Below are positions 14,721-31,967 of a stretch of DNA of 64,000 bases, in pieces; within the stretch, counting starts at the first letter, position 1, and the number at the start of each line of letters is the position of its first letter. The translations under genes and the position numbers were made by a program. The DNA is from Curvularia clavata. Taxonomy: Eukaryota. The DNA lies in NCBI GenBank assembly GCA_023920165.1, contig CP089276.1, forward strand, positions 3,782,001 to 3,846,000, written 5' to 3'. Under the pieces are notes generated by a model. The model did not search any database, was not told where the DNA came from, and worked only from the letters and a program-made list of their open reading frames with translations.

Positions 14721-16007
14721 TCATTGACTTTTGGGCTGAAGTCCCATTTTTGCGACCAAAGCCTCAGCAATGTCATGTGCGAAGCCTTCGTCGTTGATCG
14801 GTCGGTCGTCTTCCACAATGTCAATTCCGCTTCCTTGAAGCCCGCTCTTAATAGTATCAAACAGCACTGCATCGGCCTTTGCATCTTCGAACGGTCCTCC
14901 AGGTGTTGCAATCATACTGATTCCTCCCTTGGGAAGCCAAACTTGCACAGCCTGTGGATTCTTTGCATACTTTTTCAGCTGTGTCGTGATAAATTCGCCG
15001 ACTTGTCTTGCCTCGCTTTCCGACGTCCTCATGAGCGTTACAACTGGGTTATGCTCATACAGCTTGCGGTCTTTGTAATGCTCTGGAATGGTGGCCTTGG
15101 GACCAAAGTTCGTCATATCTGTTGCACCCACAGAGATGATATTGGGTATTCCCGCTCTTGCTGCAGCTTCCAGGCGATGCTCGCCTGCGCTCATAACGCC
15201 GCCTGTTATGTGATCGCATATCTCTGTCGTTGTAAGATCAAGCACTGCATCAAGACCCTGTTCCTGCACCAGTCGCTCCATGGCCTTTCCACCGTGTCCC
15301 GTAGCATGGAAGACATATGTCTCGATATCGTATCTCGCCTCTAGATGTCTTCGAATACCATCGACAGCTGGAGTCGTGACGCCAAACATTGTGATACCAA
15401 CGCGTTTCTTCTTGGGCTGAGTGATGGCCTTGTTTTTTGATTTATGTGCATGAGCCATGCCTGCAATGGCAGCCCCAGCATTGCTGAGGACCTGTCGAAG
15501 TACTTGATTTAAACCAGCCACATCAACCACGCTGTACATCATCGTTATATCCGTCTCGCCAACAATCGGGCCAGTGTCGCCACTCGCTATAGTCGAAACA
15601 ATCAGTTTCGGAAAGCCAATTGGCAAAGCATTCCTCATCACTTCTGCAGCAAGCGATGTGCCACCTGAGCCGCCCGCACTGACAACAGCATCACACATGC
15701 CTTCCTTCAGAAGATGCTTCACGGCTCTTGTCGCACACCCCGCCATGGCTGTGATGAGCTCGCCTCGTGGCAGCTTGCTGACAAGCTCGAATCGGTGCGA
15801 CGCTTGACCGGCTTCTATTCCATCACCAAAATCAGAGAGTAATCGCTCCTGGCCGATCTCAATGGCTTCGTGCTTTGTGAGGCTACGGCCCACATCAATG
15901 AGTATTACATGGGCCTCGTTGCGGTGAATGCGTTCTCGTAAGAAAAGCAGCTCTTCTAATTTCGTATCGCAGGTACCAATCAGCACGACACGAGGATGGC
16001 CAGACAT
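14721..16007 (-). CDS. UPF0261 / Tm-1 N-terminal-like ATP-binding domain protein (428 aa, intronless)
   Basis: Motifs IGTCDTKLEE, AGGSGGT, LPIGFPKLIVST, MYSVVDVAGLN, GITMFGVTTP, VFHATGHGGKAME, DLTTTE, HNPVVTLMRT. Confidence 0.88.
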   Translation of the reverse strand: MSGHPRVVLIGTCDTKLEELLFLRERIHRNEAHVILIDVGRSLTKHEAIEIGQERLLSDFGDGIEAGQASHRFELVSKLPRGELITAMAGCATRAVKHLLKEGMCDAVVSAGGSGGTSLAAEVMRNALPIGFPKLIVSTIASGDTGPIVGETDITMMYSVVDVAGLNQVLRQVLSNAGAAIAGMAHAHKSKNKAITQPKKKRVGITMFGVTTPAVDGIRRHLEARYDIETYVFHATGHGGKAMERLVQEQGLDAVLDLTTTEICDHITGGVMSAGEHRLEAAARAGIPNIISVGATDMTNFGPKATIPEHYKDRKLYEHNPVVTLMRTSESEARQVGEFITTQLKKYAKNPQAVQVWLPKGGISMIATPGGPFEDAKADAVLFDTIKSGLQGSGIDIVEDDRPINDEGFAHDIAEALVAKMGLQPKSQ

Positions 16008-16228
16008 GTTGATAATGATGTAGTGGAGATGTGTTGTGAGTAGACTCCACGGACTGCTAGTGGGTCTTGATGATCATTCTCATGTGATAAATCCCCGCTC
16101 GGATAATGTCGTCATAACCTTGGCTCTCACAACCTTTCTTACTATAATCTCTGCGTTGTTGCAGGGTTGCAATCAAAACAATCCGGATACTTAGTTTCTC
16201 TTTGTGTTATATTTGAAACGCAGCAGTC

Positions 16229-17130
16229 ATGTCGCCTCCAACAGACCGCGCCGCTATCCTTCAAAACCTTCGCTCACAAATCAACAATGGGAAAGTCATT
16301 GTTGGCGCTGGCGCTGGCATCGGTCTAAGTGCCAAATTTATCGAAGCAGGAGGCGGCGATCTGATTATAATATACAACAGCGGACGATACCGGATGGCGG
16401 GGCGTGGATCGCTTGCGGGGTTGATGCCTTATGGAAATGCCAATGATGTTGTACTTGAGATGGTAAGTTCAACATATAGAAAAACTACAAAAGATATTCA
16501 TGTGCGGGCAACTGATTGCCACAGGCAGGAGAAGTCCTACCCATTGTCAAGTCTACCCCAGTTCTAGCAGGAGTATGCGCCACAGATCCATTTCGAGACA
16601 TGCAGCGCTTCCTCAAGCAACTCAAAGACCTTGGCTTCGCAGGCATACAAAACTTTCCTACTGTTGGCTTAATCGATGGAATGTTTCGGCAAAACCTGGA
16701 AGAGACAGGAATGTCATACGATGCCGAAGTCGAAGTCGTCAAGATGGCGCGAGAGATGGATCTGCTGACTACGCCGTATGTGTTCAATGTCGAGGAGGCA
16801 AAGAAGATGGCGAATGCAGGTGCAGATATCCTGGTTGCGCACATGGGCTTAACGACCTCCGGCAGTATTGGAGCTACGTCTGGCAAGACCTTGGACGAGT
16901 GCGTAAAGTTGATCCAGGAGATTCAGCAGGTGGCATCGGGTATCAAGAGCGATGTGATCATTTTGTGCCACGGTGGCCCGATTGCGAAGCCAGAGGACGC
17001 AGAGTATGTGATTAGTCGGACGAAAGGTGTGCATGGCTTCTATGGAGCGAGTTCTATGGAGCGATTGCCCGTCGAGGAGGCTATTACGAATATCACCAAG
17101 ACTTTCAAGGGAATAAGATCAAGTGCGTAG
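16229..17130 (+). CDS. TIM-barrel protein of the PEP-hydrolase-like / TIM-barrel signal transduction family (Tm-1 C-terminal-like), ~279 aa, 2 exons
   Basis: Exon 1 16229-16462, intron 16463-16524 (GTAAGT...CTGAT...CAG), exon 2 16525-17130. Motifs [72 protein letters not shown]. Confidence 0.9.
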
Positions 17131-18116: not shown

Positions 18117-21100
18117 ATGGCGGAGGCCAAGATCACACAGCGGGGAATCCGCATTGCCATTGATGTACGCATTCTTCTGACATGAATTGGCCATGCATGA
18201 TTACTGACTATGTAGCGTGGTGGTACTTTTACAGACTGCGTGGGAAACCCCGGTACGGGCAAGATGGAAGACGATGTTCTCATTAAGCTGCTTTCCGTCG
18301 ACCCATCCAACTACGATGATGCGCCGCTTGAAGGCATTCGTCGCCTCCTCTCCAAATTCACTGGCACCGAGATTCCCCGTGGACAGCCGCTGGACACATC
18401 CAAAATCGAAAGCATTCGCATGGGTACAACGGTGGCCACCAATGCCCTGCTAGAGCGCAAGGGCGAGGATATCGCCATGGTAGTGACAAAAGGCTTCAAG
18501 GACTGTCTCGAAATTGGCAACCAGAGTCGGCCTAACATTTTTGCCCTGGATATCCGGAAGCCAGAGGTGCTCTACAAAAAGGTTGTCGAAATTGACGAGC
18601 GTGTTACACTGGAAGACTATGCCGAAGACCCAGAAAGGCATCAGACCAAGGCAGCAAGCATTGAGGAGGCTGGAGATGACGCTGAACTGGTCAAAGGACT
18701 GTCAGGCGAGACAGTGCGCATATTACAGCGACCACAGGAAGATGCGATCAGAAAGCAACTCCAAGATGTATATGATAGTGGATTGAGGAGCATAGCAGTT
18801 TGCCTGATGCACGGCTACACATATCCGAAGCACGAAGCGCTTGTAGGCAAGATTGCAAGAGATATTGGGTTTGAGCATGTCAGCTTAAGTCACGAACTCA
18901 TGCCCATGATCAAGCTGGTTCCGCGAGCAACTTCTGCATGCGCAGACGCATACCTCACCCCTGCCATACGAAAGTACATTGATGGTTTCTCCAAAGGGTT
19001 TGAAGGCGGACTTGGTACCAAAAGCGTAAAGCGCGAAGCGGGTTCCAAGGGTGCACGATGCGAGTTCATGCAGTCTGACGGAGGTCTGGTAGACGTCGAT
19101 ATGTTTTCGGGCCTTAAGGCCATCCTGTCGGGACCTGCTGGGGGTGTTGTAGGCTACGCACTAACATCCTACGACCCGCAGACCAAGATACCCGTTATTG
19201 GATTCGACATGGGAGGCACAAGTACCGACGTCAGCCGATATGGCGCTGGGCGATACGACCATGTCTTCGAGACTACTACTGCCGGAGTCACTATCCAGTC
19301 ACCGCAACTCGACATCAACACAGTTGCGGCTGGTGGTGGATCGCGTCTTTTCTGGAAGAACGGTCTTTTTGTCGTTGGACCAGAATCAGCAAGCGCACAT
19401 CCTGGCCCAGCATGCTATCGGAAAGGCGGTCCGTTAACAATTACGGATGCAAACTTGTTCCTCGGCCGATTACTACCGGACTTCTTCCCCAAGATCTTCG
19501 GCAAAAATGAGGACGAGGGCCTGGACGCCGAAGCCAGCGAGAAGCTGTTCAAGGAACTGGCAGAGCAGATTAACAAGGAGATTGCTGGAGGTAATAAGGA
19601 AAAGGAAATGTCACTGGATGACATTGCCAACGGCTTTATCAAGATCGCAAACGAGACCATGACGCGACCCATCCGTAGCTTGACCGAGGCGCGAGGCCAC
19701 GATACCTCAAAGCACCGACTTGCGACCTTTGGTGGTGCTGGTGGACAGCACGCGGTTGCCATAGCCGAAGCACTTGGTATCTCACAGATTCTTGTTCACA
19801 GATATTCTTCGGTACTTTCCGCTTATGGCATGGCTCTCGCCGATGTCGTCGATGAAAGGCAAGAACCAGAGTCGAAGGTTTGGTCTGATGAGAAGGATGT
19901 GAGAGAGTACTTGCAGGCCAAGATGGCGGACTTGAAGAGCAAATCAACTGTCACTCTAAAGGAACAAGGGTTCGACGAGGACCACATTCACTTTGAGGAG
20001 TACCTTAACTTGCGCTACCGAGGAACTGAGTCAGCACTCATGATTATCAAACCAACAAAGGAAGAAGCCGAAAAGGAATACGGCGGAGATGAGTGGGCAT
20101 TCGGAAAAGCCTTCGTTAAGCAGCATGAGCAAGAATTTGGCTTCACACTGCCAGACCGCGATATCATCGTGGATGATGTCAGAGCACGAGGAATTGGAAA
20201 GACCTTTGAGGGATTGGAAAAGAGCGTAGACCAACAGCTAAAGGAGATTAAGCCCAAAGATCTCTCAGGCGATACGAAGCGTTATGATACACGCAAGGTA
20301 TTCTTCGAGGGTGGCCGACAAGACACCTCTGTGTACAAGCTCGAAGACCTGGAGGTTGGCGATCGCCTGAAGGGCCCTGCCATTATTGCAGACGGCACAC
20401 AGACTATCGTCGTCACTCCCGGTGCTACTGCTCTCGTCATCAATACGCATGTCGTGATAAACATTGGTGAGAGCGAAGAACAAGACAAGCAGATTGGCAC
20501 AAAAGAGGTGGATCCCATTCTGCTCAGTATCTTTGCTCATAGGTTTATGGCTATTGCCGAGCAGATGGGTCGCGCGCTGCAAAAGACGAGTGTATCCACT
20601 AACGTCAAAGAGCGATTGGACTATTCTTGCGCTCTGTTCGATGCAGAGGGCGGATTGGTTGCAAACGGTAAGTCAGGCACTTACGAAAATTGACACAACT
20701 AACACACACATAGCGCCCCATCTCCCTGTCCATCTCGGAAGTATGTCGACATGTGTCCGAAAACAGGCAGCCATCTGGAAAGGCAAGCTCAAGAAGGGTG
20801 ACGTCCTAGTCTCCAACCACCCTATGTTTGGAGGCACGCATCTGCCAGATATTACTGTGATTACACCAGCTTTCAGTGGCGACAACATCATCTTCTATGT
20901 TGCTTCCCGCGCACATCATGCTGATATTGGCGGTATTCTTCCTGGTTCAATGCCCCCAGCCTCCAAAGAGCTTTATCAAGAAGGCGCGGCTATTAAATCG
21001 GAGAAGCTCGTATCAGAAGGCCATTTCAACGAAAACCGCATCACTGAGTTGCTTCTGGATGAGCCAGGCCAGTATCCTGGATGCTCTGGCACCCGATGCC

Positions 21101-22404
21101 TTAGCGACAACATCAACGACTTGAAGGCACAAGTCGCCGCGAACCAAAAGGGCATCAATCTCATCAGCACACTCATGTCTGACTATGGTGAGGAGGTTGT
21201 CAAGTTCTACATGACCAACATCCAAGCCAATGCCGAGAAATCTGTCCGAGCGTTGCTAAAGGATGTGTACAAGCGCTTCGAAGGCCAAGATCTCAGCGCT
21301 GAGGAGTTCATGGACGATGGAAGTCCCATTCGTCTCAAGGTCTCCATCGACCCCGAAAAGGGCGAAGCCGTCTTTGACTTCTCAGGAACAGGACCCGAGG
21401 TGTATGGAAATATCAATGCCCCTGAAGCCGTCACTTATTCGGCCATCATATACTGTCTCCGCTGTCTCATCAGTGAAGACATTCCGCTGAATCAGGGATG
21501 TTTGAAGCCGATCCATGTCCTCATTCCCAAGAAGTCTTTCCTCTCACCCTCGGATAATGCAGCTGTCGTTGGTGGCAATGTACTCACGAGCCAACGTGTT
21601 ACGGACGTCGTATTGAAAGCCTTCCGCGCCTGCGCTGCTAGTCAAGGCGATACCAACAACCTTACTTTTGGCTTTGGCGGCACGACATTTGGAGAAGGGG
21701 AAAAGAGCGGAGAGAGGAAAGAGACCAGGGGATTCGGATATTATGAGACCATCGCCGGAGGATCCGGTGCAGGACCCACATGGAACGGCACCAACGGAGT
21801 GCATACTCATATGACCAATACTCGCATCACGGACTCTGAAGTATTTGAGCGCCGATATCCTGTTCTGCTTAGGGAATTTTCACTCAGACAAGGGAGCGCA
21901 GGACGCGGAATGCACGTTGGTGGTGAGGGAGTCATACGCGATATTGAATTCCGCATCCCAGTTCAGGTTAGCATCCTTAGCGAGAGAAGAGTGTATCATC
22001 CATATGGCATGGAAGGAGGAGGCGACGCCGCCTGTGGTCTCAACATCTGGGTTCGCAAAGTCGACAAGAAAGCCCTTGACAAGAACTCTGACTCCAAGAA
22101 ACCCATTGAGCCTCAGGAATCAACTTCTCAAGCTCCCACAACATCTAGCGATGTGGAAGCTTTGGAGAAGAAGGACGCTGGAAGGGGTAACAAGGAAGAT
22201 GTCGAGTACAGGTATATCAACCTTGGTGCGAAGAACACCGCTAGCATGCGGCCTGGTGAGCGGATCATCATTCACACCCCTGGAGGTGGTGGATGGGGCA
22301 AGGAAGGAGAGCAGAGCAGGGTACAGGATAAGAAAGATCCTAAGCAGGGTTGGAAGGGAGGAAGTGTAGCCGGACGGCAGAGTACCGCCGAGGCTAGCGC
22401 TTAG
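18117..22404 (+). CDS. OXP1: ATP-dependent 5-oxoprolinase (hydantoinase A/B fusion), 3 exons
   Basis: Exons 18117-18164, 18216-20667 and 20714-22404. Motifs IAIDRGGTFTDC, MGTTVATNALLERKG, FDMGGTSTDVS, NVKERLDYSCA, APHLPVHLGSM, GGTHLPDIT, HTHMTNTRITD, TPGGGGWG. Confidence 0.95.
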
Positions 22405-22600
22405 AATGATGTAGATGTGCGGATACTGTGGATGTTTTGATAGCAAACATGTATGTGTGAAGTTCTCATTATTCATATCCTAACCATTTCTGACTATCCG
22501 AACAATGTCAAAGAAAAACATAAGTAACGCCACTCGTGACCAGAGAATCACGTCAATAACGCCATCAGCAATCAGAGCAAACTTGAGCGAATTCAAATCA

Positions 22601-23893
22601 CTAGCCCCCAGCCTTTCCGTCCTTTTCCCTCTCCTGCGCGAACTCAGGCCCTTCGTAAAATGCAATCATATCCCTCCAGCCCCGCTGCCACTCCTCCTTT
22701 AGCCACCCTCCCTCTGCCACCCAAATCTTCTCATGAACTACCTTTAACTTATTCACCTCGTCCTCACTCGGGAAGAACCCGCCCCACTGCCTTTCGAGCC
22801 TCGTTGCCGGGAACGCCGTCTCAGGCCCAAACTGCCAATTCAAGAAAGCCTGCTCAGCCATCAAGCAATCATACTTATCCGTTTTGACATAATTCTGTAG
22901 CAAGCGCTGATGCATGCGCAGCGAAGGTGTGAAAACCATCGACCCCACATTGATGTTCGGATGTTCGATATTAAACGGGTCCTGCGGAATGCCGGCAAAG
23001 ACGTACGGCTCGCACACGGGCCCATCCGCCAAAAAGTCATCCAGATGCAGCTTCTCTGGGATACAGCTGCTGACTTTGGGTATGTCGAACATTTCGTCCA
23101 TGTTTGCGAGAGGAAAGGCGTCAGCATCCAGGAAGAGGATGCGGCGGAATTCAGTCTCTTTCCACATGTTGAGTTTGGCGAAGAGATCTTTCCAGCGGTT
23201 TTGTACCCCGGGGACATTGGGATGCCATGGCAGAGGCGATAGCTCACGGACGAGAGCCCCGGCGCCTGATAGTAGGGCGCGTTGCTCTGCTGTCACGTAT
23301 TCGGCTACGTAGACTATGAAGGGGTGCTTCTGAGTGCGTGACTGGGGCGACCATAGCAGACGATAGATGAGGGAGTGGATAGCTAGGAAGTAGGGATCTT
23401 TGATAGATGGGTTTCGAGTAGCCAGAAACGTAGCATATGCGTATTTCTCCGTGCCCCCGGGAACATAGTTGTGAGGTTTGTGGCCAGTGAACCGCTGTAG
23501 GGTTGGGATTGGGAGTATCAGATCAAGCTCCTTTTGGAAAGCAAATTCAGCTTCCAGGACGGTCTGGCCATTCTGCGCAGCTGGAACGGACTTGTCCTCC
23601 GGAGGAGCTGCAGCTGAACCAGGGCTTTCCGGGGCCGCTTTGGCGGGCGAGCTGTCGTCGCCTGCTGTCACGTGCTTCTTGGGGTCGGTTTGCGGGGAAG
23701 CCGCCGCACCTTGAGATTGCGGAGAAGCTTTCAGATCGGAGGGTAGCACTTCGATGCCGGTGTTACTCTCTTTGGTATCGTAGTACGCATGAGTAACACC
23801 CACATGTCGGGAGTGACTGCTATGTTGTGAGACCAGGAGGATTGTACCGAGGCATGCAATGGTAGCCAGAGCGATATTGTGCCGCCTCCTCAT
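22601..23893 (-). CDS. Glycosyltransferase family 8 protein, type II membrane topology (430 aa)
   Basis: Short basic N-terminus, TM segment and low-complexity stem. Motifs YAYATFL, FAKLNMW, ILFLDAD (DxD), INVG, AEQAFLN, VVHEK. Confidence 0.8.
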   Translation of the reverse strand: MRRRHNIALATIACLGTILLVSQHSSHSRHVGVTHAYYDTKESNTGIEVLPSDLKASPQSQGAAASPQTDPKKHVTAGDDSSPAKAAPESPGSAAAPPEDKSVPAAQNGQTVLEAEFAFQKELDLILPIPTLQRFTGHKPHNYVPGGTEKYAYATFLATRNPSIKDPYFLAIHSLIYRLLWSPQSRTQKHPFIVYVAEYVTAEQRALLSGAGALVRELSPLPWHPNVPGVQNRWKDLFAKLNMWKETEFRRILFLDADAFPLANMDEMFDIPKVSSCIPEKLHLDDFLADGPVCEPYVFAGIPQDPFNIEHPNINVGSMVFTPSLRMHQRLLQNYVKTDKYDCLMAEQAFLNWQFGPETAFPATRLERQWGGFFPSEDEVNKLKVVHEKIWVAEGGWLKEEWQRGWRDMIAFYEGPEFAQEREKDGKAGG

Positions 23894-24518
23894 GTTGAAG
23901 TGAGCAAATTGGTGCTTTGCAGGCGTTACTCCTGCGTTTGTTCAAGTGCAAATAGTTGCTCGGATGTTGGACGTTCACATGTACCGATTGGGGTCCAATT
24001 TCATGTGGTACAGAGCATGTGTTAGTATATCCGAGGTCCCGGTAGATACAATAGCAATGCAATATGAAGCCTCCTCTCCTGGGGGCTGGATATCCCGAAA
24101 GCGACCACGCCATAAAGTCTGTACATAATTCAATGGCCGGCGGTGTTGGTACCTGATTCGGATATTGCCGATGCGATGACGACGATCAGCGGCAGGGCAG
24201 GGGCCATGGTTCTTCTCCGAACGAATACCCTGGAGGCGCCGGAGCGTGCACCGTATTCGACCGTCAATACAACGGGCGCTTAGGTCGTGTGACGCATCCG
24301 CTCCTTTGCACCTGCCTTAGTGCGGCGAAACGTGCGTAACGTATTCTGCCCCTCAAGTGCGACCTACTCCATAATCGTCACATGAAGCCGAATTTTTTTT
24401 TTAAGGATCGACAAAACACGGTCACGCAATTACAACATGTGGAGATTGGCATGAGGGGTTTCCACGCGAAAAACAAAGCTAGTATCCGTATTTTGTTATA
24501 CTACAGCCAATTGAGCTC

Positions 24519-26018
24519 TCATCGTGTTGACTGACTACGGTGGTGACCCGGCCTAGTCTGCTGTGCAATTGTCTTCTTGTAGAGCCAGTTGGTAAACTTG
24601 ACGCTTGGCTCATCAACCAGCTTTGTCACAATCTCGGCAAAGTACAATGTGAAGGACAGTATGACAGGTTGCAGGAGCCAAAATCCCAGTTCCAGCCCCA
24701 GTGGGCCTTTGATAGGCAGTGGGAATTTGTTGACCCACTGTGGTATACCGTCTGGGTGGGTCGGTCTCGTAAAGCCTACCAAGGCGTACAGTCGGTCTCC
24801 GAGGGTCCAGATAACGATTCCGTGGACGAGATAGAGCGCAAAAGACACGCGGCCGAGATACTGGCAGAAGCGCGTCTCAAAGAAACACTTGAGCCATGGC
24901 AAGCGGGGCACTGATGCGACGATGAAGAATGCTGCCCAGAAAAGATAGAACCATTTCGCGTCAAAGACGGCCTGTGGCTTGAGATAGGATAGCCAGACCC
25001 ATCCTGGCGATTTGGCGAGAAGAGCAACCCGGTCCACGTCGGGCGCGTCGAATGATGGCGTGCCTCCAAGATAAAGAGCAATCACGAACAAGTGAAAGAA
25101 GATGAACTCTTTGAAGTCGCTCAACACTGAGAACACATGTGGAAGTTGGTCTTCTTGTGCGAGCATGTCCAGGTCGCAGAGCAGCATTCCAGACATGAAC
25201 ATTGCGCCGTAGTAGCCGTCCACGATGTAAAGAAAATAGAATGCTAGAGCCGCCTCGCACCAGAGACGAGCATTCTTCGTGCACCGAGTGAGGGCGGAGA
25301 GCGCAGTGTAGATGATGATGGATCCCTTAAACTCCACGGGAATAGACCAGACGTGTGCGTGAAACTGGATCGGAAAGGTGTAGATGTCAGTCGAGAAAAC
25401 GAAGCTGTAGTTCTTGAACATCTGGTACCAGGTGACGATCTCCTTTCGGTATGTTTCTTCCAAAGGACGCAGGTCAACCCATACGCCGCTCCAGTAACGG
25501 AATGTCATGAACACAAAGGTAACCACAATGACAGGGAGGTACAATCGCATCCAACGGCGGAAGAGGGCGGAACCAATGCTGTCTGCAGCACTCACAGCAT
25601 GGCTATCGTGGATCATGCGCAGGCTCTTGAGAGAGAGCACATAACCAGAGATAACGAAGAAGATGGCCACAGCAAAGTGGCCACCAGAGAAGAAGTTGCG
25701 TACAAATGGTAATGCTGCAAAGAAGTGTCGACCTTCATAGCCCCAGGAATTCTCAAACACCTTGTTACCTCGTTCTCCATGAGCCCAGAGTTGGTTGTGG
25801 TGAAAGTATACCAGGAGTGCAGCGAAGCCTCTCAGACCATCCAGCCACGCCGTTGGCCTGATCGGCTTGCTTTTTGAGGCTGATCGAAAGGACAGGAATT
25901 CCGGGCGCACGATGTCGAGGCTCCATCTGACCGTACGAACTGGTTTCCAGATGGAAGGCGAGAGTTTGATTTCGTCAACACCTTCGTGGCCCAACAGCCC
26001 GTTATATTTGGCCGCCAT
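24519..26018 (-). CDS. Acyltransferase family 3 (polytopic membrane O-acyltransferase), 499 aa
   Basis: Motifs TAWLDGLRGFAALLVYFHH, AVAIFFVISGYVLS, RRWMRLYLP, HVWSIPVEF, YLGRVSFALYLVH. Many TM segments. Confidence 0.88.
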   Translation of the reverse strand: MAAKYNGLLGHEGVDEIKLSPSIWKPVRTVRWSLDIVRPEFLSFRSASKSKPIRPTAWLDGLRGFAALLVYFHHNQLWAHGERGNKVFENSWGYEGRHFFAALPFVRNFFSGGHFAVAIFFVISGYVLSLKSLRMIHDSHAVSAADSIGSALFRRWMRLYLPVIVVTFVFMTFRYWSGVWVDLRPLEETYRKEIVTWYQMFKNYSFVFSTDIYTFPIQFHAHVWSIPVEFKGSIIIYTALSALTRCTKNARLWCEAALAFYFLYIVDGYYGAMFMSGMLLCDLDMLAQEDQLPHVFSVLSDFKEFIFFHLFVIALYLGGTPSFDAPDVDRVALLAKSPGWVWLSYLKPQAVFDAKWFYLFWAAFFIVASVPRLPWLKCFFETRFCQYLGRVSFALYLVHGIVIWTLGDRLYALVGFTRPTHPDGIPQWVNKFPLPIKGPLGLELGFWLLQPVILSFTLYFAEIVTKLVDEPSVKFTNWLYKKTIAQQTRPGHHRSQSTR

Positions 26019-26636
26019 GGTCGTTGGTGAAACAAAATAAGTGACAATTGAGCAATTGAAATAGTAATATGAAGAGCGACTAATACCGGATACTTGAAGA
26101 GCTCATGGATGCTCAAAACAATGACGGAGGATGCTTGATGGCAGGATGTGCATAACTTGCACAAGCCATCGCCAATTTCACAACTGGACATACGTACGTT
26201 AGCAGCGCAACGTTGAATGTGACAATGCTAGAAAGGTAATATGATTGGACTATCTCATTTTACGAGATATGATGCGGGGACTGTCAAGGGGCAAATACCT
26301 AAAACGTCCAAGTTCCCGACGCACTTGCAGGGGCGAAATTTATAAGCTTCAGTCTACCCGGCTTGGAACTGGGGTTGTACAGCATATTTTCAAGGGTGTA
26401 CTCCTAGCCTCGCATGTACATGCGGGGTTGAGAACCTCTTCATGAGGCTGCCCCTGCATGTGAATGGAGACGGCCGTACCGAGGATGAATCTTGGAATGG
26501 CATTGGTGGATGCGGCTGCATGGTCATGCTCCAGGGAGAAAGCCCGTATTCTAGGCTGGCTATGGAGACGATCACTCAAAGGTGTTGGAAGGGCTGGGTA
26601 AAATTGGCACTCTCGTAATGTTGTAATAACTCCAGC

Positions 26637-27944
26637 ATGCGCTCACGATCAAGGCCACCTCCGCCCAAGCTCCATCTGAAGATCGATATGCATCCACGCT
26701 CCCCAATAGTGTCGCAGTTCTCAGGCAAGCTCACCAGCCAAGTGCGGAGAGTCTTGCCTGCATACATTGCTCTGATCTTTCTCTTCTTGTTCTTCGCAAA
26801 TACTGAGTTATTCACAGCCCCTATCCGAGCTGCGAGCAAATACAAGCGCGAGCTCAAGTACCAGCAGCCACTTCAGCCAGTGGGTTCAGTGATTCCAAGG
26901 AAGATATGGCAGACATGGAAGGTCGGTCCTCTGGGCTTTGAGCAGCGCGACTCAGACTCAGCCAAAACCTGGTCCCAAAAGAACCCTTCATACCGGTACG
27001 AGGTGTTGACGGATGACAACGCAAATGAGTACCTCGAGTGGCACTACGGGTCACACGGTCTTGACAGAAAAGATCTCGTCGACCTCTACAAGGAGCTGAA
27101 CATCACGATCATCAAAGCCGATTTGCTGCGGTACCTCGTGATGTATGCAGAAGGTGGTGTGTATGCCGACATTGACGTGGAATGCCTACGGCCCATCGAA
27201 AGGTTCATACCTGAACGTTACAACGAGCCGGATGTCGACATGATCATCGGAGTAGAAATCGACGAGCCTGCCTTCGCTGACCACGAAATTCTTGGATCCA
27301 AGTGCAAGTCCTTTTGCCAGTGGACATTTGCCGCCAAGCCCAGGCTTCCAGTCATGATGAGGCTCATCGAGAATATCCAAGACTGGCTACACGAGCTGGC
27401 CAAAGCGAAATCAGTACCCATTTCACAACTTCAGTTGGATTTCGACGAGGTCATCAGCGGAACAGGGCCATCGGCATTCACCAGGGCTGTCCTAGAACAG
27501 ATGACAGCACAGAACCATGGAAATCCCGTCACCTGGGATCTCTTCCATAACCTGGCAGAATCGAGACTCGTTAACGGCATTCTCGTGCTCAATGTTGAAG
27601 CCTTTGCCGCTGGTCAAGGACACTCCGACTCTGGTAACCACGGCTCTAGAGGCGCACTGGTCAAGCACCATTACCACGCCTCGGGCTGGCCCACGCTCCA
27701 TCCTCGGCGAAACCACCCCATGTATGGCGAAGTAGAGCATTGCAACTGGAAGCCGGATTGCGTAGCGGAATGGGTGAGTGATTTGCGGACCTTAAACTTT
27801 TGGCAATGTATGCTAACATGCACAAAGGACAAGAACGTAGCTGAATGGGATACTCTATCCAAAGAAGAACAGGACAAGCGCCTTGCCAGCAGGCCGGCCC
27901 CTCCTCCTGGAGCTCCTGGAGCGCCACGGCCTTTTGGAAGCTGA
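26637..27944 (+). CDS. Glycosyltransferase family 32, Och1/Hoc1-like alpha-mannosyltransferase; probable 54-nt intron at 27774-27827
   Basis: N-terminal TM (AYIALIFLFLFFA). Motifs IPRKIWQTWK, KADLLRYLVMYAEGGVYADIDV (DxD), FCQWTF, GTGPSAFT, VKHHYHASGW. Intron GTGAGT...GCTAAC...AAG. Confidence 0.88.
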   Translation: MRSRSRPPPPKLHLKIDMHPRSPIVSQFSGKLTSQVRRVLPAYIALIFLFLFFANTELFTAPIRAASKYKRELKYQQPLQPVGSVIPRKIWQTWKVGPLGFEQRDSDSAKTWSQKNPSYRYEVLTDDNANEYLEWHYGSHGLDRKDLVDLYKELNITIIKADLLRYLVMYAEGGVYADIDVECLRPIERFIPERYNEPDVDMIIGVEIDEPAFADHEILGSKCKSFCQWTFAAKPRLPVMMRLIENIQDWLHELAKAKSVPISQLQLDFDEVISGTGPSAFTRAVLEQMTAQNHGNPVTWDLFHNLAESRLVNGILVLNVEAFAAGQGHSDSGNHGSRGALVKHHYHASGWPTLHPRRNHPMYGEVEHCNWKPDCVAEWVSDLRTLNFWQCMLTCTKDKNVAEWDTLSKEEQDKRLASRPAPPPGAPGAPRPFGS

Positions 27945-28459
27945 AGCCGAAGCCAGTAACTGAATGGATGATGCAGCTTGTGCCTTTCGTCCTAACCCTA
28001 GGGACCTGAGGTGGCGAGAAGGTAGCCTTATCGTTATTTCACTGCGGTGGTTCGCCATATCAGCGATAGTGCACCTTCAAGAGGTGGAGCTTCCAGTGGA
28101 AAGCGCATAGCTTCGCGGTGAGCTACGCAATCTTCCCTGTAGACATGTGATAGATCCTACTTTGGAGGTAATGTCATGTAGATGTAGACAGCGCATCGCA
28201 TGAAAGGGCTTGAATTAGGCTACGAAGTAATGAATTAATCTCGTTCGATACCATTAACGTTGCGAGTCCTGAACGCGCTCTCGGTGAACGGATTCAAGAT
28301 TTGGCTAACATGCGGCACTCGTGACTGCCACGTCAACGTATGCTGATGGTCTGAATCGCATTACCGGCTATGGTAACTCAATTAGCAAGCCTGATATCTT
28401 GGAGTTGCAGCTATGAGGTAGCAGTTGTTGGCAATGAATGTCTAGTCACGTGTAGATTT

Positions 28460-28830
28460 GTCGCGCCCGATACACTACGTCGCGCCTGAAATCACGCCCG
28501 AAAGCCCAGGCCGAATCCAGCAGCGCTAAGTCGCGTTCGAAAGTCGCGTTTGATAGTCTAAGCCAAATTAGATGGCGCTAGGTCACGGTCGAAGGATCAC
28601 GCCCGTTAAGCTAAGCTAGATTTAGGAGTACTAAGTTACGTCCGAAGTCGCGCCTGAAAGTCACGACCGACAACACTAAGTCGCGCCCGAAAATACTGAG
28701 TCACGACCGAACATACTGAATCACGACCGAACACACTGAGTCACGACCGAACATACTGAGTCACGACCGACAACACTAAGGCACGACCGATAACGCCATG
28801 TCACGCCTGAAATCGCTGAGTCGCGTCCTA
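28460..28830. repeat. Minisatellite: 20-bp unit (TCACGACCGAACAYACTGAG-like), ~8.5 regular copies at 28661-28830, with irregularly spaced degenerate cores upstream
   Basis: tcacgaccga/tcgcgcccga/gcacgaccga/tcacgcctga recur exactly every 20 nt from 28661. Similar cores (gtcgcgcccga, gtcgcgcctga, tcacgcccga, gtcacggtcga) occur from 28460. Confidence 0.92.
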
Positions 28831-30309
28831 CAACGGGCTTGATAACGCTCATTCATACCCGGCACTCAGCACCAAGTCATCTCGTAATTGAAACCCCTGT
28901 CGGATAACTGACGGCGACGCTCGGCACGTCCAAGTCATATCGAACAACTCTTACAGAGGGGCCTGACAACCTAGAACCCCTTGGTTAGACGGAATAGCGT
29001 CCGCAGGACCAGTATGTGTTGGATCAAAATGATGACACCTGGAACCACTCCTTCTTTCTTGTACGTGAAACGTTAGCCAAAAACGCAAATTTCCAAAATT
29101 TTGGTCTTTTGGCAAGGCAGAGAAGCAAATAATTCGGGTTTGAATTTCACCCAAGTATCGTACTGATTGTACTGCCCTTGAACAAACAGACAGACAAATA
29201 ACTGTCGCAGACTGGATTGCGGGCACAAGACATTGCTCAGTCGCACGTTCTACCTATGTACAAGATGGGCAAAGTCTGGACTGTGAATAGGAAGGGAAGT
29301 GGAGCGCAGATGATTAATCTGCCCTACGTCATTTTGGAACGATCAAGAACAACATGATCAGAATCGGTCATGCAGAAAGCCATGATTAATAAACTGGACA
29401 AGAAATCTGGATGATCGTTGGTTTATCTGGTTTCATCAAAAACATTTCAACGCCAAATTGATATGATAGGGAATAGAAAGTAATCTCAACTAGCATGAAG
29501 TGAAATTAATTAATGTGTATAGCTTTCCGAACATGTTAGTTGTAAGATAGTATTGGAAATATCGGTGTTCACAAATCTATGATTCCCGAACATGAAGCAT
29601 CCCAAGTGCTTGCATATTCTATGGGCTTTGTTCGTCCTAGAGTATGCGCCTGTGATTATTATTTGTGGGGCTAGGAATCTATCTCCATTGTGTGTTACTT
29701 TGAGGATTGTCCCGTACTCTAACAGACTTCAACGACGACACATTGATACTGGAATCCGCTCAAGGGCTACAAACTTCCCGGGTAGGTAGGTGACCCTTAC
29801 ACTCTCAGTTACGGAGCACTAAGTTGTGAGTTCAGGCAAACTAGTTTTTTGTGAGGTCACAGGCCCAAAAGCATGACTTAGCTGCCACCCACGCCACTTT
29901 GGCCTACTGCCTCACGTCTTTGCTCTTTGCTCTTTTCTCTTTGCTTCTTGCTGCCAGGCTGCAGGCTGCAGGCTTGACAAGCTGCCTTGAATAGCAACTC
30001 GGTTGCTGCTCATGCCCTTTGCCGCGCTAGCCTGGCTTAGGACAAGCTGTTTTCTCTTTGCTGTTGCTTTGTTATTCTGCTTTGCTTTCTGTTTGCCAGC
30101 TGCAGGCTTAACAAAGCCGATTGAATAATAATTCGATTGCTGCTCAAGCTATTTACCTGCGCCAGCGTTGCCCGTCAAGCTGCTGGCATCAGCCAAGTCT
30201 GGCTGATATTTTTTTTGCTGTAGTTAGCTCTATTTCTATGGTATATTACCTAGAGATGACCTGTAGTTCGCTTAGTGTCTGCGATTTTAGTACCTCAAAT
30301 AGATGGTTG

Positions 30310-30408
30310 CTTCTTCTTCTTCTTCTTCTTCTTCTTCTTCTTCTTCTTCTTCTTCTTCTTCTTCTTCTTCTTCTTCTTCTTCTTCTTCTGCTGCTGCTGC
30401 TGCTGCTG
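30310..30408. repeat. Compound microsatellite (CTT)26(CTG)7
   Basis: Direct count from the sequence. Confidence 0.95.
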
Positions 30409-31967
30409 CTCGTCCACTTGCACTGCGTGAAGTCGGCCTCACAATTTTACTGGGGACACGCTACGCTTAGAATGAGATCAAGTGTTTCTTCAGCCCCCGC
30501 TTCTATGCTTCACGGAGATACGAATCTCTCGACTACAACAACTTGATCACTACCTAAAGATCTCTCGAACTCTCCTCAAGTCCGAACAACACTTTAATGG
30601 CATTATTCCTAAATGTTCCTCCGCTCGAAGTGAACTAGTAACGGAAACTTCTCGTGAAGTTTCTTTTAGCAGTTCACGTTCCATTGTTCCTTGTCATAGG
30701 CATCTCACATTGAAGATTTAGACAACTACGGCACCTTAAATGTTTCCGAGCCATCAACAGAAGTACTAAGCCAATTCTTCCACAGCATTACACATTTAAG
30801 CACAGTTAAACACAGCTCCGCTATGAAATATTCACGGTACCCTTAAGCCAAGTACATTACGGTCATTATATCGGTCGCCAAAATATGAGCAATCATCTCA
30901 CACCATGATACGATATGATATACGCAACTTTACACGCAAAGAAGTGTGTCCCATCCCCTAGGACGCAAACGTCCCCAACGTCGCCATCCTACAAATCATG
31001 TACTGCCATCGTATCCAGCCCTCAAGAGCCGCACCGTCTGCCCAGGAAACCCAAAGAAAATCTACCTTACCTAGTGCCCCTCACAAATAAGCAGCATGCA
31101 TCCCATTTTTCGAATTCCTCTCTTTCAAGATCACTCAATGCTAGCAAGTTCAACAATATTAGTTCTCCAACCGTCCTTGTTTTACACGCAGTGAAGCGTA
31201 AATCCTAGAGCTTTGCCTCAGTGCCCCAGCTACGAACAACCCCCTCACCACCATTGACATGAAGCATGACCACTGGAATATGCCAGCTACGCTAGTGCAA
31301 ATGGTGTAGAAGATCCCCATAAAGCATTGTATAGGTGATTACCGTAGTTTTCCGGGATGAGCTGGCATGGGCTCGTAAATTCTTGGTTCCAGTGGGAATG
31401 AATGGCCTGGGAGACGGGATGTAAGATTCCGTGCAGGGGTTTGACGCCCCAGGAATGGTGTGTATGTCGGGAACATTGATTCTTACGTTGTAGGTGGATT
31501 TTTGGAGTGGAATAAGGACATTGAGGCGTAATGTACTTGTATCACGGAGCCCTGGCTTTGCTCTTAGAAAAAAGTGCATCAGACGATGGGCTTTAGATGT
31601 TATAATAAAAGCCTTGGAAACCGGACTTCGAGGTTTTCACTTACACTCAAGCATTAACAATAGAGAAAGGGGGGTACAAATAGTGAAAAGCAAACTAGCA
31701 GCTTTAAGGATACTGTCAAATAGCAAAACACCCACAGGCGGAATTAAACATCATCATTGAGACATCTAAGCTAACACAACTAGAACCTTACAGCACTTAT
31801 CAGTTTCTCATACAAGTCCCTGAAGACACGGCACAATATCTGCACATTGACGGCACTGGATCAGAAACCACTAACCCAGTTGCCACACCTTCAACTACAG
31901 CGTCCGAGTATACCACACGACCCAAAAAAAGCACATCTCCTCATCTCTTCACCAGTGACATGTTTCC

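Follow-up and report, generated by a model that had tools for sequence, protein, structure and literature searches.

Do the genes encoding a glycosyltransferase 8 (GT8)-like protein, an AT3-type acyltransferase and a GT32 glycosyltransferase that lie side by side in Curvularia clavata belong together, and what would they make if they do? The locus lies in a stretch of 64,000 nucleotides (nt) (GenBank assembly GCA_023920165.1, contig CP089276.1, positions 3,782,001 to 3,846,000 of the forward strand; hereafter, the window) and had been read from its letters, in an original prediction made by a model, as a three-gene cluster for an O-acylated glycan. Here, we ask which part of this arrangement is conserved, whether the GT32 gene is anything other than OCH1, and which explanation of the locus best accommodates the results. 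The window is best explained as the Pleosporales form of an old filamentous-ascomycete gene pair. On balance, although not by much, we favour the view that this pair is the core of a lumenal glycan or glycolipid module—as suggested by sequence and by analogy—in which AT3 and a non-Och1 GT32 enzyme would act together, with O-acylation of the product and a lineage-specific accessory transferase.

The three genes adjoin one another, with 625 bp between the GT8-like and AT3 genes and 618 bp between the AT3 and GT32 genes, the latter two being divergent (Table 1). This layout agrees with the original prediction, which had given a spacing of about 620 bp. The prediction of two type II and one polytopic membrane protein also agrees with hydropathy scans (a single N-terminal hydrophobic segment in each of the GT8-like and GT32 proteins, and at least six segments in AT3 at a strict threshold; the family core has ten helices), and the DxD motifs ascribed to both transferases were located at D256-A-D258 and D178-I-D180, respectively. 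No polyketide synthase or nonribosomal peptide synthetase core was found near the trio in the window, likewise as predicted. Among the matches listed, the closest named relatives of all three proteins are from Pleosporales; identity reaches 81% between AT3 and proteins of Bipolaris oryzae and Exserohilum turcica, and 89% between GT32 and a protein of Bipolaris oryzae. RNA contigs from four runs of three studies cover all three genes in every run, continuously and without joints over 22546-24021/24089 for the GT8 region and without a joint over 24547-26146 for AT3.

Linkage in relatives was assessed in a metagenome scan with the GT32 alignment, which returned 271 stretches, 136 of them encoding a relative; the 80 best, together with as much as 10 kb of sequence to either side, form the set of loci analysed. 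The AT3 gene was located by tblastn with the window proteins, the count was restricted to loci having 4 kb or more of sequence upstream, and loci with GT32 sequences at least 97% identical were merged. AT3 stands upstream of GT32 in divergent orientation in 46 of the 48 loci with sufficient flank, the median gap between the two matches being 768 bp among close loci and 1664 bp among distant ones. Merging leaves 42 distinct loci, of which 40 have the pair (10/10 close and 30/32 distant). In a tree with named references, these loci group with Pleosporales, Sordariomycetes, Leotiomycetes and Chaetothyriales, so that Dothideomycetes and Eurotiomycetes are represented too, as well as with lineages for which there is no named reference, and several sit beside a Sordariales reference. 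The complete trio is kept in eight of nine Pleosporales-like metagenome loci and, under consecutive locus tags, in three named Pleosporales genomes, whereas adjoining AT3 and GT32 tags are found in the leotiomycete Chlorociboria (Table 1). A gene model of Ascochyta (P0064, 708 amino acids [aa]) even fuses GT8 to an AT3 domain.

The surroundings are far less stable. Clustering of open reading frames from 58 distinct loci, the window included, revealed no other family common to the window and the distant loci; later checks added to that picture a small family resembling protein O-fucosyltransferases (O-FucT-like; 4/80 loci). The 5-oxoprolinase gene that flanks GT8 in the window is present in four close loci only and is inverted in two of them. 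The divergent UPF0261 and PEP-hydrolase-like neighbours in the window form a pair that is intact in three Pleosporales-like loci (L010, L011 and L049), where it lies on the opposite side of the trio. Since the positions of these flanking genes shift, the surroundings have been rearranged around a pair that has stayed intact, as has the trio in Pleosporales-like loci, and linkage is retained beyond background synteny. A comparison of AT3 with GT32 identity across distant loci was uninformative (Spearman 0.17, n = 33). The original prediction had named unlinked genes in relatives as an outcome that would count against it, and these genes are linked. Its three-gene cluster stands in part: the AT3-GT32 pair holds across lineages, but the membership of GT8 does not extend beyond Pleosporales-like loci. 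The conserved unit is, thus, the divergent AT3-GT32 pair, and GT8 is a Pleosporales-like addition.

What occupies the third position varies with lineage. GT8 adjoins the pair in 8/9 close and 0/26 distant loci; a different protein, here called protein X, in 1/9 close (L002) and 13/26 distant loci; and an O-FucT-like protein in none seen of the nine close and 3/26 distant loci. No recognised glyco-enzyme adjoins the pair in 0/9 close and 10/26 distant loci. Protein X, which is not encoded in the window, is found in L002 and 20 further loci (about 430-500 aa from a conserved start), mostly in the same position and on the same strand as GT8, and downstream of GT32 in L045 and L075. None of 15 members has a Pfam match. 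In its structural model (mean predicted local distance difference test [pLDDT] score 74.5), an N-terminal helix is combined with a disordered stem and a domain resembling a five-bladed propeller, the layout being that of a type II protein. The top 10 Foldseek matches of the model are all of GH130 type, led by beta-mannoside phosphorylases and a mannoside synthase (9erg, E 4e-9) and followed by Leishmania mannosyltransferase/phosphorylases. A language-model search leads to clusters of the Candida-type beta-mannosyltransferase BMT (PF12141; score 0.94), which we treat as a lead only. Protein X is, therefore, a putative GH130/GT91-like protein and a candidate beta-mannosyltransferase, as judged from its model. 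The idea that it is a diverged GT8 was rejected, there being no detectable similarity to the GT8-like protein of the window. The O-FucT-like proteins, 45-56% identical to one another and with a sub-threshold match to PF10250, are encoded beside the pair, on either side, in four of the 80 loci; three of these four belong to the 26 distant loci of the counts above. The remaining neighbours (a helicase, a polyketide synthase, oxidoreductases and a second AT3) are unrelated; the second AT3, a paralogue in L054, and the polyketide synthase, in L044, each lie directly beyond the conserved AT3 gene (Table 1).

The GT32 gene has to be told apart from OCH1, because several sources name its orthologues 'alpha-1,6-mannosyltransferase Och1' and because the structure of Saccharomyces cerevisiae Och1 (9n3s) is its sole significant solved relative (98.8 bits, E 3.4e-27). 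Its 54-nt in-frame intron is spliced out in RNA contigs of all four runs and corresponds to an 18-aa insert lacking in 13/13 aligned relatives, so that the product has 417 aa rather than 435. The protein matches PF04488 with 57.4 bits (cutoff 23; E 2.4e-15) and begins with a 35-residue N-terminal tail followed by a single hydrophobic segment, the transmembrane anchor at residues 36-54. Both aspartates of its DxD motif (D178 and D180) are invariant across 14 sequences, over which mean column identity is 55%, and identity across the sampled lineages is 50-60%. A search of 1.84 billion representatives yielded 183 proteins at E<=1e-30, with a gap in identity between matches above 50% (and one at 44%) and those at 40% or less.

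In a FastTree phylogeny of 123 rows, the window protein falls within a 30-row clade (support 100) that spans Dothideomycetes, Sordariomycetes, Leotiomycetes and Chaetothyriales and includes the Taphrinomycotina yeast Savitreella. Schizosaccharomyces japonicus Och1, a Saitoella protein and a Paracoccidioides 'initiation-specific alpha-1,6-mannosyltransferase' fall in a separate Och1 clade (support 99). Both clades were recovered by IQ-TREE from 47 rows, each with 100 in the Shimodaira-Hasegawa-like approximate likelihood-ratio test. Since Pezizomycotina and Taphrinomycotina members are found in both, the two are old paralogues. The Och1 clade retains Och1-type motifs, and the window clade has a set of its own. 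The score of the window protein against 9n3s is also that of a paralogue: the Paracoccidioides member of the Och1 clade reaches 263.3 bits and an unrelated paralogue 102.7 bits.

The active site points in the same direction. Donor- and acceptor-site residues of Och1 were taken from the structure paper (PMC12312940; papers cited by PMC number stand here for those parts of them that were available) and mapped by hand on one alignment, the C-terminal part of which is weak. The donor site appears to be kept, with T93, D126, D162, R165, Q228 and H344 of the window protein corresponding to T103, D139, D171, R174, Q263 and H463 of Och1. The acceptor residues E243, Q260, S443 and Q448 map to E207, S225, A324 and H329, respectively, within the limits of that weak C-terminal alignment, so that three of these four residues, none of which PMC12312940 describes as a main-chain contact, differ: Q260 to S, S443 to A and Q448 to H. 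In representatives of the Och1 clade, the first two of these differing positions still have Q and S. Moulds have several Och1-like genes with a single true Och1 among them, and Och1 of filamentous fungi reportedly carries a signal peptide in place of the tail and anchor seen here (PMC3012087). Judged by its sequence, the window GT32 is not OCH1, and belongs to a separate, old clade of Och1-like paralogues, for which no characterised member was found. The phylogeny that had been proposed with the original prediction thus places the gene apart from true OCH1, and we consider it highly improbable that this is the housekeeping enzyme that starts the outer chains of N-glycans, with neighbours that are merely incidental.

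The AT3 protein is a clear member of its family, matching PF01757 over residues 57-459 with 85 bits (cutoff 31; E 6.7e-24), with no SGNH or other domain fused to it. Invariant across 16 orthologues are H74, F120, F121 and S124-G125-Y126 (the FFxISGY motif), as well as R154-R155-W156, R158, W224, I226, P227 and E229 (WSIPxE), and R63 is kept in at least 90% of them. Bacterial AT3 proteins are marked by an Arg-X10-His pair in the first helix and an FFxISG-type motif, and the window protein has both, in the form of R63/H74 and FFxISGY. Among solved chains, it has no significant sequence match (a single match at E 0.71). By the mechanism proposed for this family, the acyl group of cytosolic acyl-CoA is handed to a sugar on the extracytosolic side (PMC12423673).

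Assignment of the left-hand protein to GT8 is less direct. It has a transmembrane segment at residues 7-25, a disordered stem rich in Pro, Ala and Ser at about 27-120, and a DxD motif of which both aspartates (D256 and D258) are invariant in 25 GT8-like sequences. The protein itself misses the Pfam cutoff for PF01501 (15.7 bits versus 24.3; E 0.011), but 17 of the 25 orthologues match at E<=0.01, the best at 2e-6, and the 25-sequence profile matches glycogenin-2 (E 2.2e-8). Foldseek likewise places glycogenin-1 and -2 at the top for its AlphaFold model (E 1.5e-8; TM-score about 0.5 on the target), of which the mean pLDDT is moderate (63.4); the core at about 130-290 is modelled well, and there is an N-terminal helix. 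Sequence and model together support membership of GT8, with a glycogenin-like GT-A fold and DxD motif; the family call of the original prediction is, hence, upheld by the fold, the profile and the orthologues, and not by the Pfam score of the protein itself. All named organisms among the 120 GT8-like matches listed are Pleosporales. In the window, the 5-oxoprolinase gene converges on the GT8-like gene, and RNA contigs fuse the two transcripts across 22404-22601. At this junction, one study has a 63-nt GT..AG joint and another a replacement of 95 nt by two other letters; both start at the same position (Table 1) and reflect either an intron in the 3' untranslated region or a strain difference.

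Contig ends allow the promoter between AT3 and GT32 to be delimited: AT3 transcripts end near 26146-26185 and GT32 transcripts begin near 26536, and the promoter region that the two genes have in common therefore spans a few hundred bases. The window copies of ATGCGGGG and CATGTGAA all fall between these transcript ends. In an alignment of 11 Pleosporales-like intergenic regions, CCGAGG and AAGC.T are invariant, and several words exceed the mononucleotide-shuffle expectation across 45 intergenic regions. ATGCGGGG is present in 13 of 33 distant intergenic regions as compared to 1/27 and 0/27 size-matched flanks, and CATGTGAA in 14 of 33 as compared to, again, 1/27 and 0/27. Because they were chosen post hoc, these motifs are a lead and not a test. 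A low-depth RNA contig of 151 nt, present in two runs, lies between the AAGCTT and CCGAGG blocks and may be a 5' extension of one of the genes or a short promoter transcript.

If the pair is indeed the core of a glycan or glycolipid module, AT3 and GT32 would act on the same lumenal (Golgi-type) glycoconjugate. GT32 would add a hexose, probably alpha-mannose from GDP-mannose, as is suggested by its family, and AT3 would acylate a sugar hydroxyl of the glycan from across the membrane, the acyl group probably being an acetyl drawn from cytosolic acyl-CoA. A lineage-specific third transferase would add a further residue: in Pleosporales, the GT8-like protein as a predicted retaining alpha-glycosyltransferase and, in many other lineages, the putative GH130/GT91-like beta-mannosyltransferase or the O-FucT-like protein. 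We infer the Golgi location, the donors, the acceptor (an N- or O-glycan, a glycosylinositol phosphorylceramide [GIPC] or a glycosylphosphatidylinositol [GPI]), the O-acylation and the common product; the catalytic motifs of AT3, GT32 and GT8 are intact. The dedicated Golgi pathway of the original prediction, which would build and acylate a cell-surface glycan or glycolipid, is kept in this form as a hypothesis, without GT8 as a constant member. More tentatively, we suggest that an old pathway, spanning at least four Pezizomycotina classes, could have AT3 O-acylate a mannose-containing glycoconjugate built by the non-Och1 GT32, with the accessory enzyme (GH130/GT91-, O-FucT- or GT8-like) being swapped.

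Two other accounts of the locus have to be weighed. The pair could be held together only by a bidirectional promoter or by chromatin, with the enzymes acting in different pathways and the GT8, protein X and O-FucT-like neighbours being coincidental. The strictly head-to-head orientation and short intergenic region would be expected under such an account, as would the recurrence of motifs in that region and the ten of 26 distant loci that lack a glyco-enzyme neighbour. The recurrence of three putative lumenal glyco-enzyme families beside the pair, in different lineages and on either side, would not: a constraint from the promoter alone is not expected to bring it about. Both partners are, moreover, membrane enzymes with predicted lumenal chemistry, and we regard this account as unlikely. 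Alternatively, the genes could make or decorate a small secreted glycoside or glycolipid, with AT3 acylating an exported compound akin to a natural product instead of a cell-surface glycan. In print, fungal AT3 proteins are, in fact, named as members of natural-product clusters (of squalestatin, zaragozic-acid and fusicoccin type; PMC12423673), and one locus, L044, has its polyketide synthase directly beyond AT3. That locus is, however, the only one of 13 examined with a core synthase, there is none near the window trio, and the 50-60% identity of GT32 across lineages is atypically high for secondary metabolism. Type II GT32 and GT8 enzymes normally modify lumenal glycoconjugates. This second account thus appears improbable, and somewhat more so than a constraint from the promoter.

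The reading of the pair as the core of a glycan or glycolipid module is itself burdened by several results, which weigh against it together. AT3 was not seen within 10 kb of GT32 in two of the 42 distinct loci (L060 and L075), GT8 is lacking in all 26 distant and one of the nine close loci, and 10 of the 26 distant loci have no recognisable glyco-enzyme adjoining the pair. Bipolaris and Exserohilum, which supply the closest named relatives in the AT3 and GT32 lists, are not among the 120 GT8-like matches listed, their GT8-like gene being either unannotated or lost, and the model on which the GT8 fold is judged is of the moderate confidence given above. The metagenome loci carry no taxon names and were placed by FastTree with few named references. 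RNA contigs document transcription in the same runs, and not expression levels, as far as co-expression is concerned. The promoter motifs were picked from the same data in which they were counted, against a mononucleotide-shuffle null, with related loci inflating the counts. Finally, the roles of fungal AT3 proteins found in the literature are in natural-product clusters only and none is in glycans (PMC12423673, in the parts available).

Table 1. Coordinates of features in the window, of genes in metagenome loci (locus handle before the colon) and of locus tags in named genomes.
Feature	Location	Strand	Basis or remark
GT8-like gene	22601-23893	-	Open reading frame, 430 aa, intronless
AT3 (Acyl_transf_3) gene	24519-26018	-	Open reading frame, 499 aa, intronless, PF01757 match
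GT32 open reading frame	26637-27944	+	435 aa unspliced, PF04488 match
GT32 exon 1	26637-27773	+	Open reading frame, PF04488; transmembrane segment 36-54, catalytic domain
GT32 intron	27774-27827	+	54 nt, GT..AG, in-frame; RNA joints
GT32 exon 2 with stop codon	27828-27944	+	Transcript contig continues to ~28326
AT3/GT32 intergenic promoter region	26019-26636		RNA contig ends, sequence motifs
ATGCGGGG	26272 and 26420		Promoter motif, two copies
AAGCTT	26344		Promoter motif
CATGTGAA	26457		Promoter motif, one copy
CCGAGG	26479		Promoter motif
Low-depth RNA contig	26333-26484		151 nt, two runs
UPF0261 and PEP-hydrolase-like genes	14724-17127		Divergent neighbours
5-oxoprolinase gene	18264-22404	+	Converges on GT8-like gene
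Joint between 5-oxoprolinase and GT8	22451-22513		63 nt, GT..AG, one study
Replacement at the same junction	22451-22545		95 nt by 2 other letters, another study
Low-G+C stretch	28000-31900		~4 kb
Tandem repeat	28658-28834		20-nt unit, ~7 copies
(CTT)x26.7 microsatellite	30310-30389		Perfect
Protein X	L002:5570-7075	-	Beside pair
O-FucT-like	L028:1812-3314	-
O-FucT-like	L033:14112-15539	+
O-FucT-like	L042:4773-6023	-
O-FucT-like	L057:4585-5199	+
Second AT3 paralogue	L054:3702-5450	-	Directly beyond conserved AT3
Polyketide synthase	L044:1595-6541	+	Directly beyond conserved AT3
GT8/AT3/GT32, Neocucurbitaria cava	N0V83_001039/40/41		Consecutive tags
GT8/AT3/GT32, Plenodomus lindquistii	NX059_004345/46/47		Consecutive tags
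GT8/AT3/GT32, Pleosporales sp. CAS-2024a	ACEQ8H_006864/63/62		Consecutive tags
AT3/GT32, Chlorociboria	B7494_g2853/g2854		Adjoining tags

Beyond the trio, a tandem repeat begins just past the GT32 transcript, and a perfect CTT microsatellite lies within a stretch that is poor in open reading frames and has a G+C content of 0.45-0.47 (Table 1).

Most of the additional Och1-like GT32 genes that moulds carry still lack an explanation, and the pair described here gives each of the two orphan families a testable partner. Its prediction is a defined sugar bearing a base-labile acyl group, and its recurring promoter motifs are open to testing too. If the tentative reading of an old pathway with swapped accessory enzymes is true, this would be the first AT3-dependent system for acylating glycans or glycolipids in fungi, in which surface glycans and glycolipids have a bearing on how the wall is built, on host recognition and on drug targets. 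Cluster finders that depend on a polyketide synthase or nonribosomal peptide synthetase core probably overlook glycan modules of this kind. No paper was found, mostly at the level of abstracts, on an AT3 gene beside an Och1-like gene, on fungal GIPCs O-acylated through genes of this kind, or on GH130/GT91-like proteins in an AT3-GT32 context.

The individual enzymes can each be compared to known systems. The AT3 protein resembles OafA/OafB, Oac and the TmAT superfamily (HGSNAT, CASD1 and GWT1/PIG-W) in its domain, its R..H pair and its FFxISG-type motif, but it is eukaryotic, has no fused SGNH domain and is paired with GT32. The GT8-like protein finds its best structural and profile match in glycogenin and shares the GT-A fold and DxD motif of retaining GT8 enzymes; unlike glycogenin, it has a membrane anchor and a long disordered stem, and it falls below the Pfam cutoff. 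By database naming, yeast Gnt1 is a further relative, as some sources call the GT8-like orthologues 'alpha-N-acetylglucosamine transferase'. Protein X is likened by its propeller model to GH130 phosphorylases, GT91 (Candida Bmt) and the Leishmania enzymes, from which it differs in having no Pfam match.

As a whole, the locus can be compared to the pathway for the zwitterionic GIPC Af3c of Aspergillus fumigatus (GntA, GdaA, OchC and ClpC/ClpB). Seegers 2022, in Glycobiology, reportedly gives the full A. fumigatus gene list, with the genes clustered. In the reference list of PMC11218662, the source paper is titled as the characterisation of a gene cluster. The Och1-like GT32 OchC (Och1-3) acts on the glycolipid and not on N-glycans (PMC9769593, PMC11218662), and the functions of och1-2 and och1-4 are called unclear (PMC9769593). 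That pathway differs from the window in that no AT3 is among the steps listed in the available parts of these two papers, and in having a de-N-acetylase and Cap59-like mannosyltransferases, which were not seen at the window; an Och1-like GT32 and Golgi-type glycosylation enzymes are common to both. A bolder form of the old-pathway reading, argued by analogy, would have the window enzymes act on inositol-phosphoceramide glycolipids as well, with GWT1, which acylates before mannosylation in GPI synthesis, as the parallel. Glycosylation gene clusters and glycan acetylation by AT3 are already known; a class-spanning AT3-GT32 pair with swapped accessory enzymes would be new.

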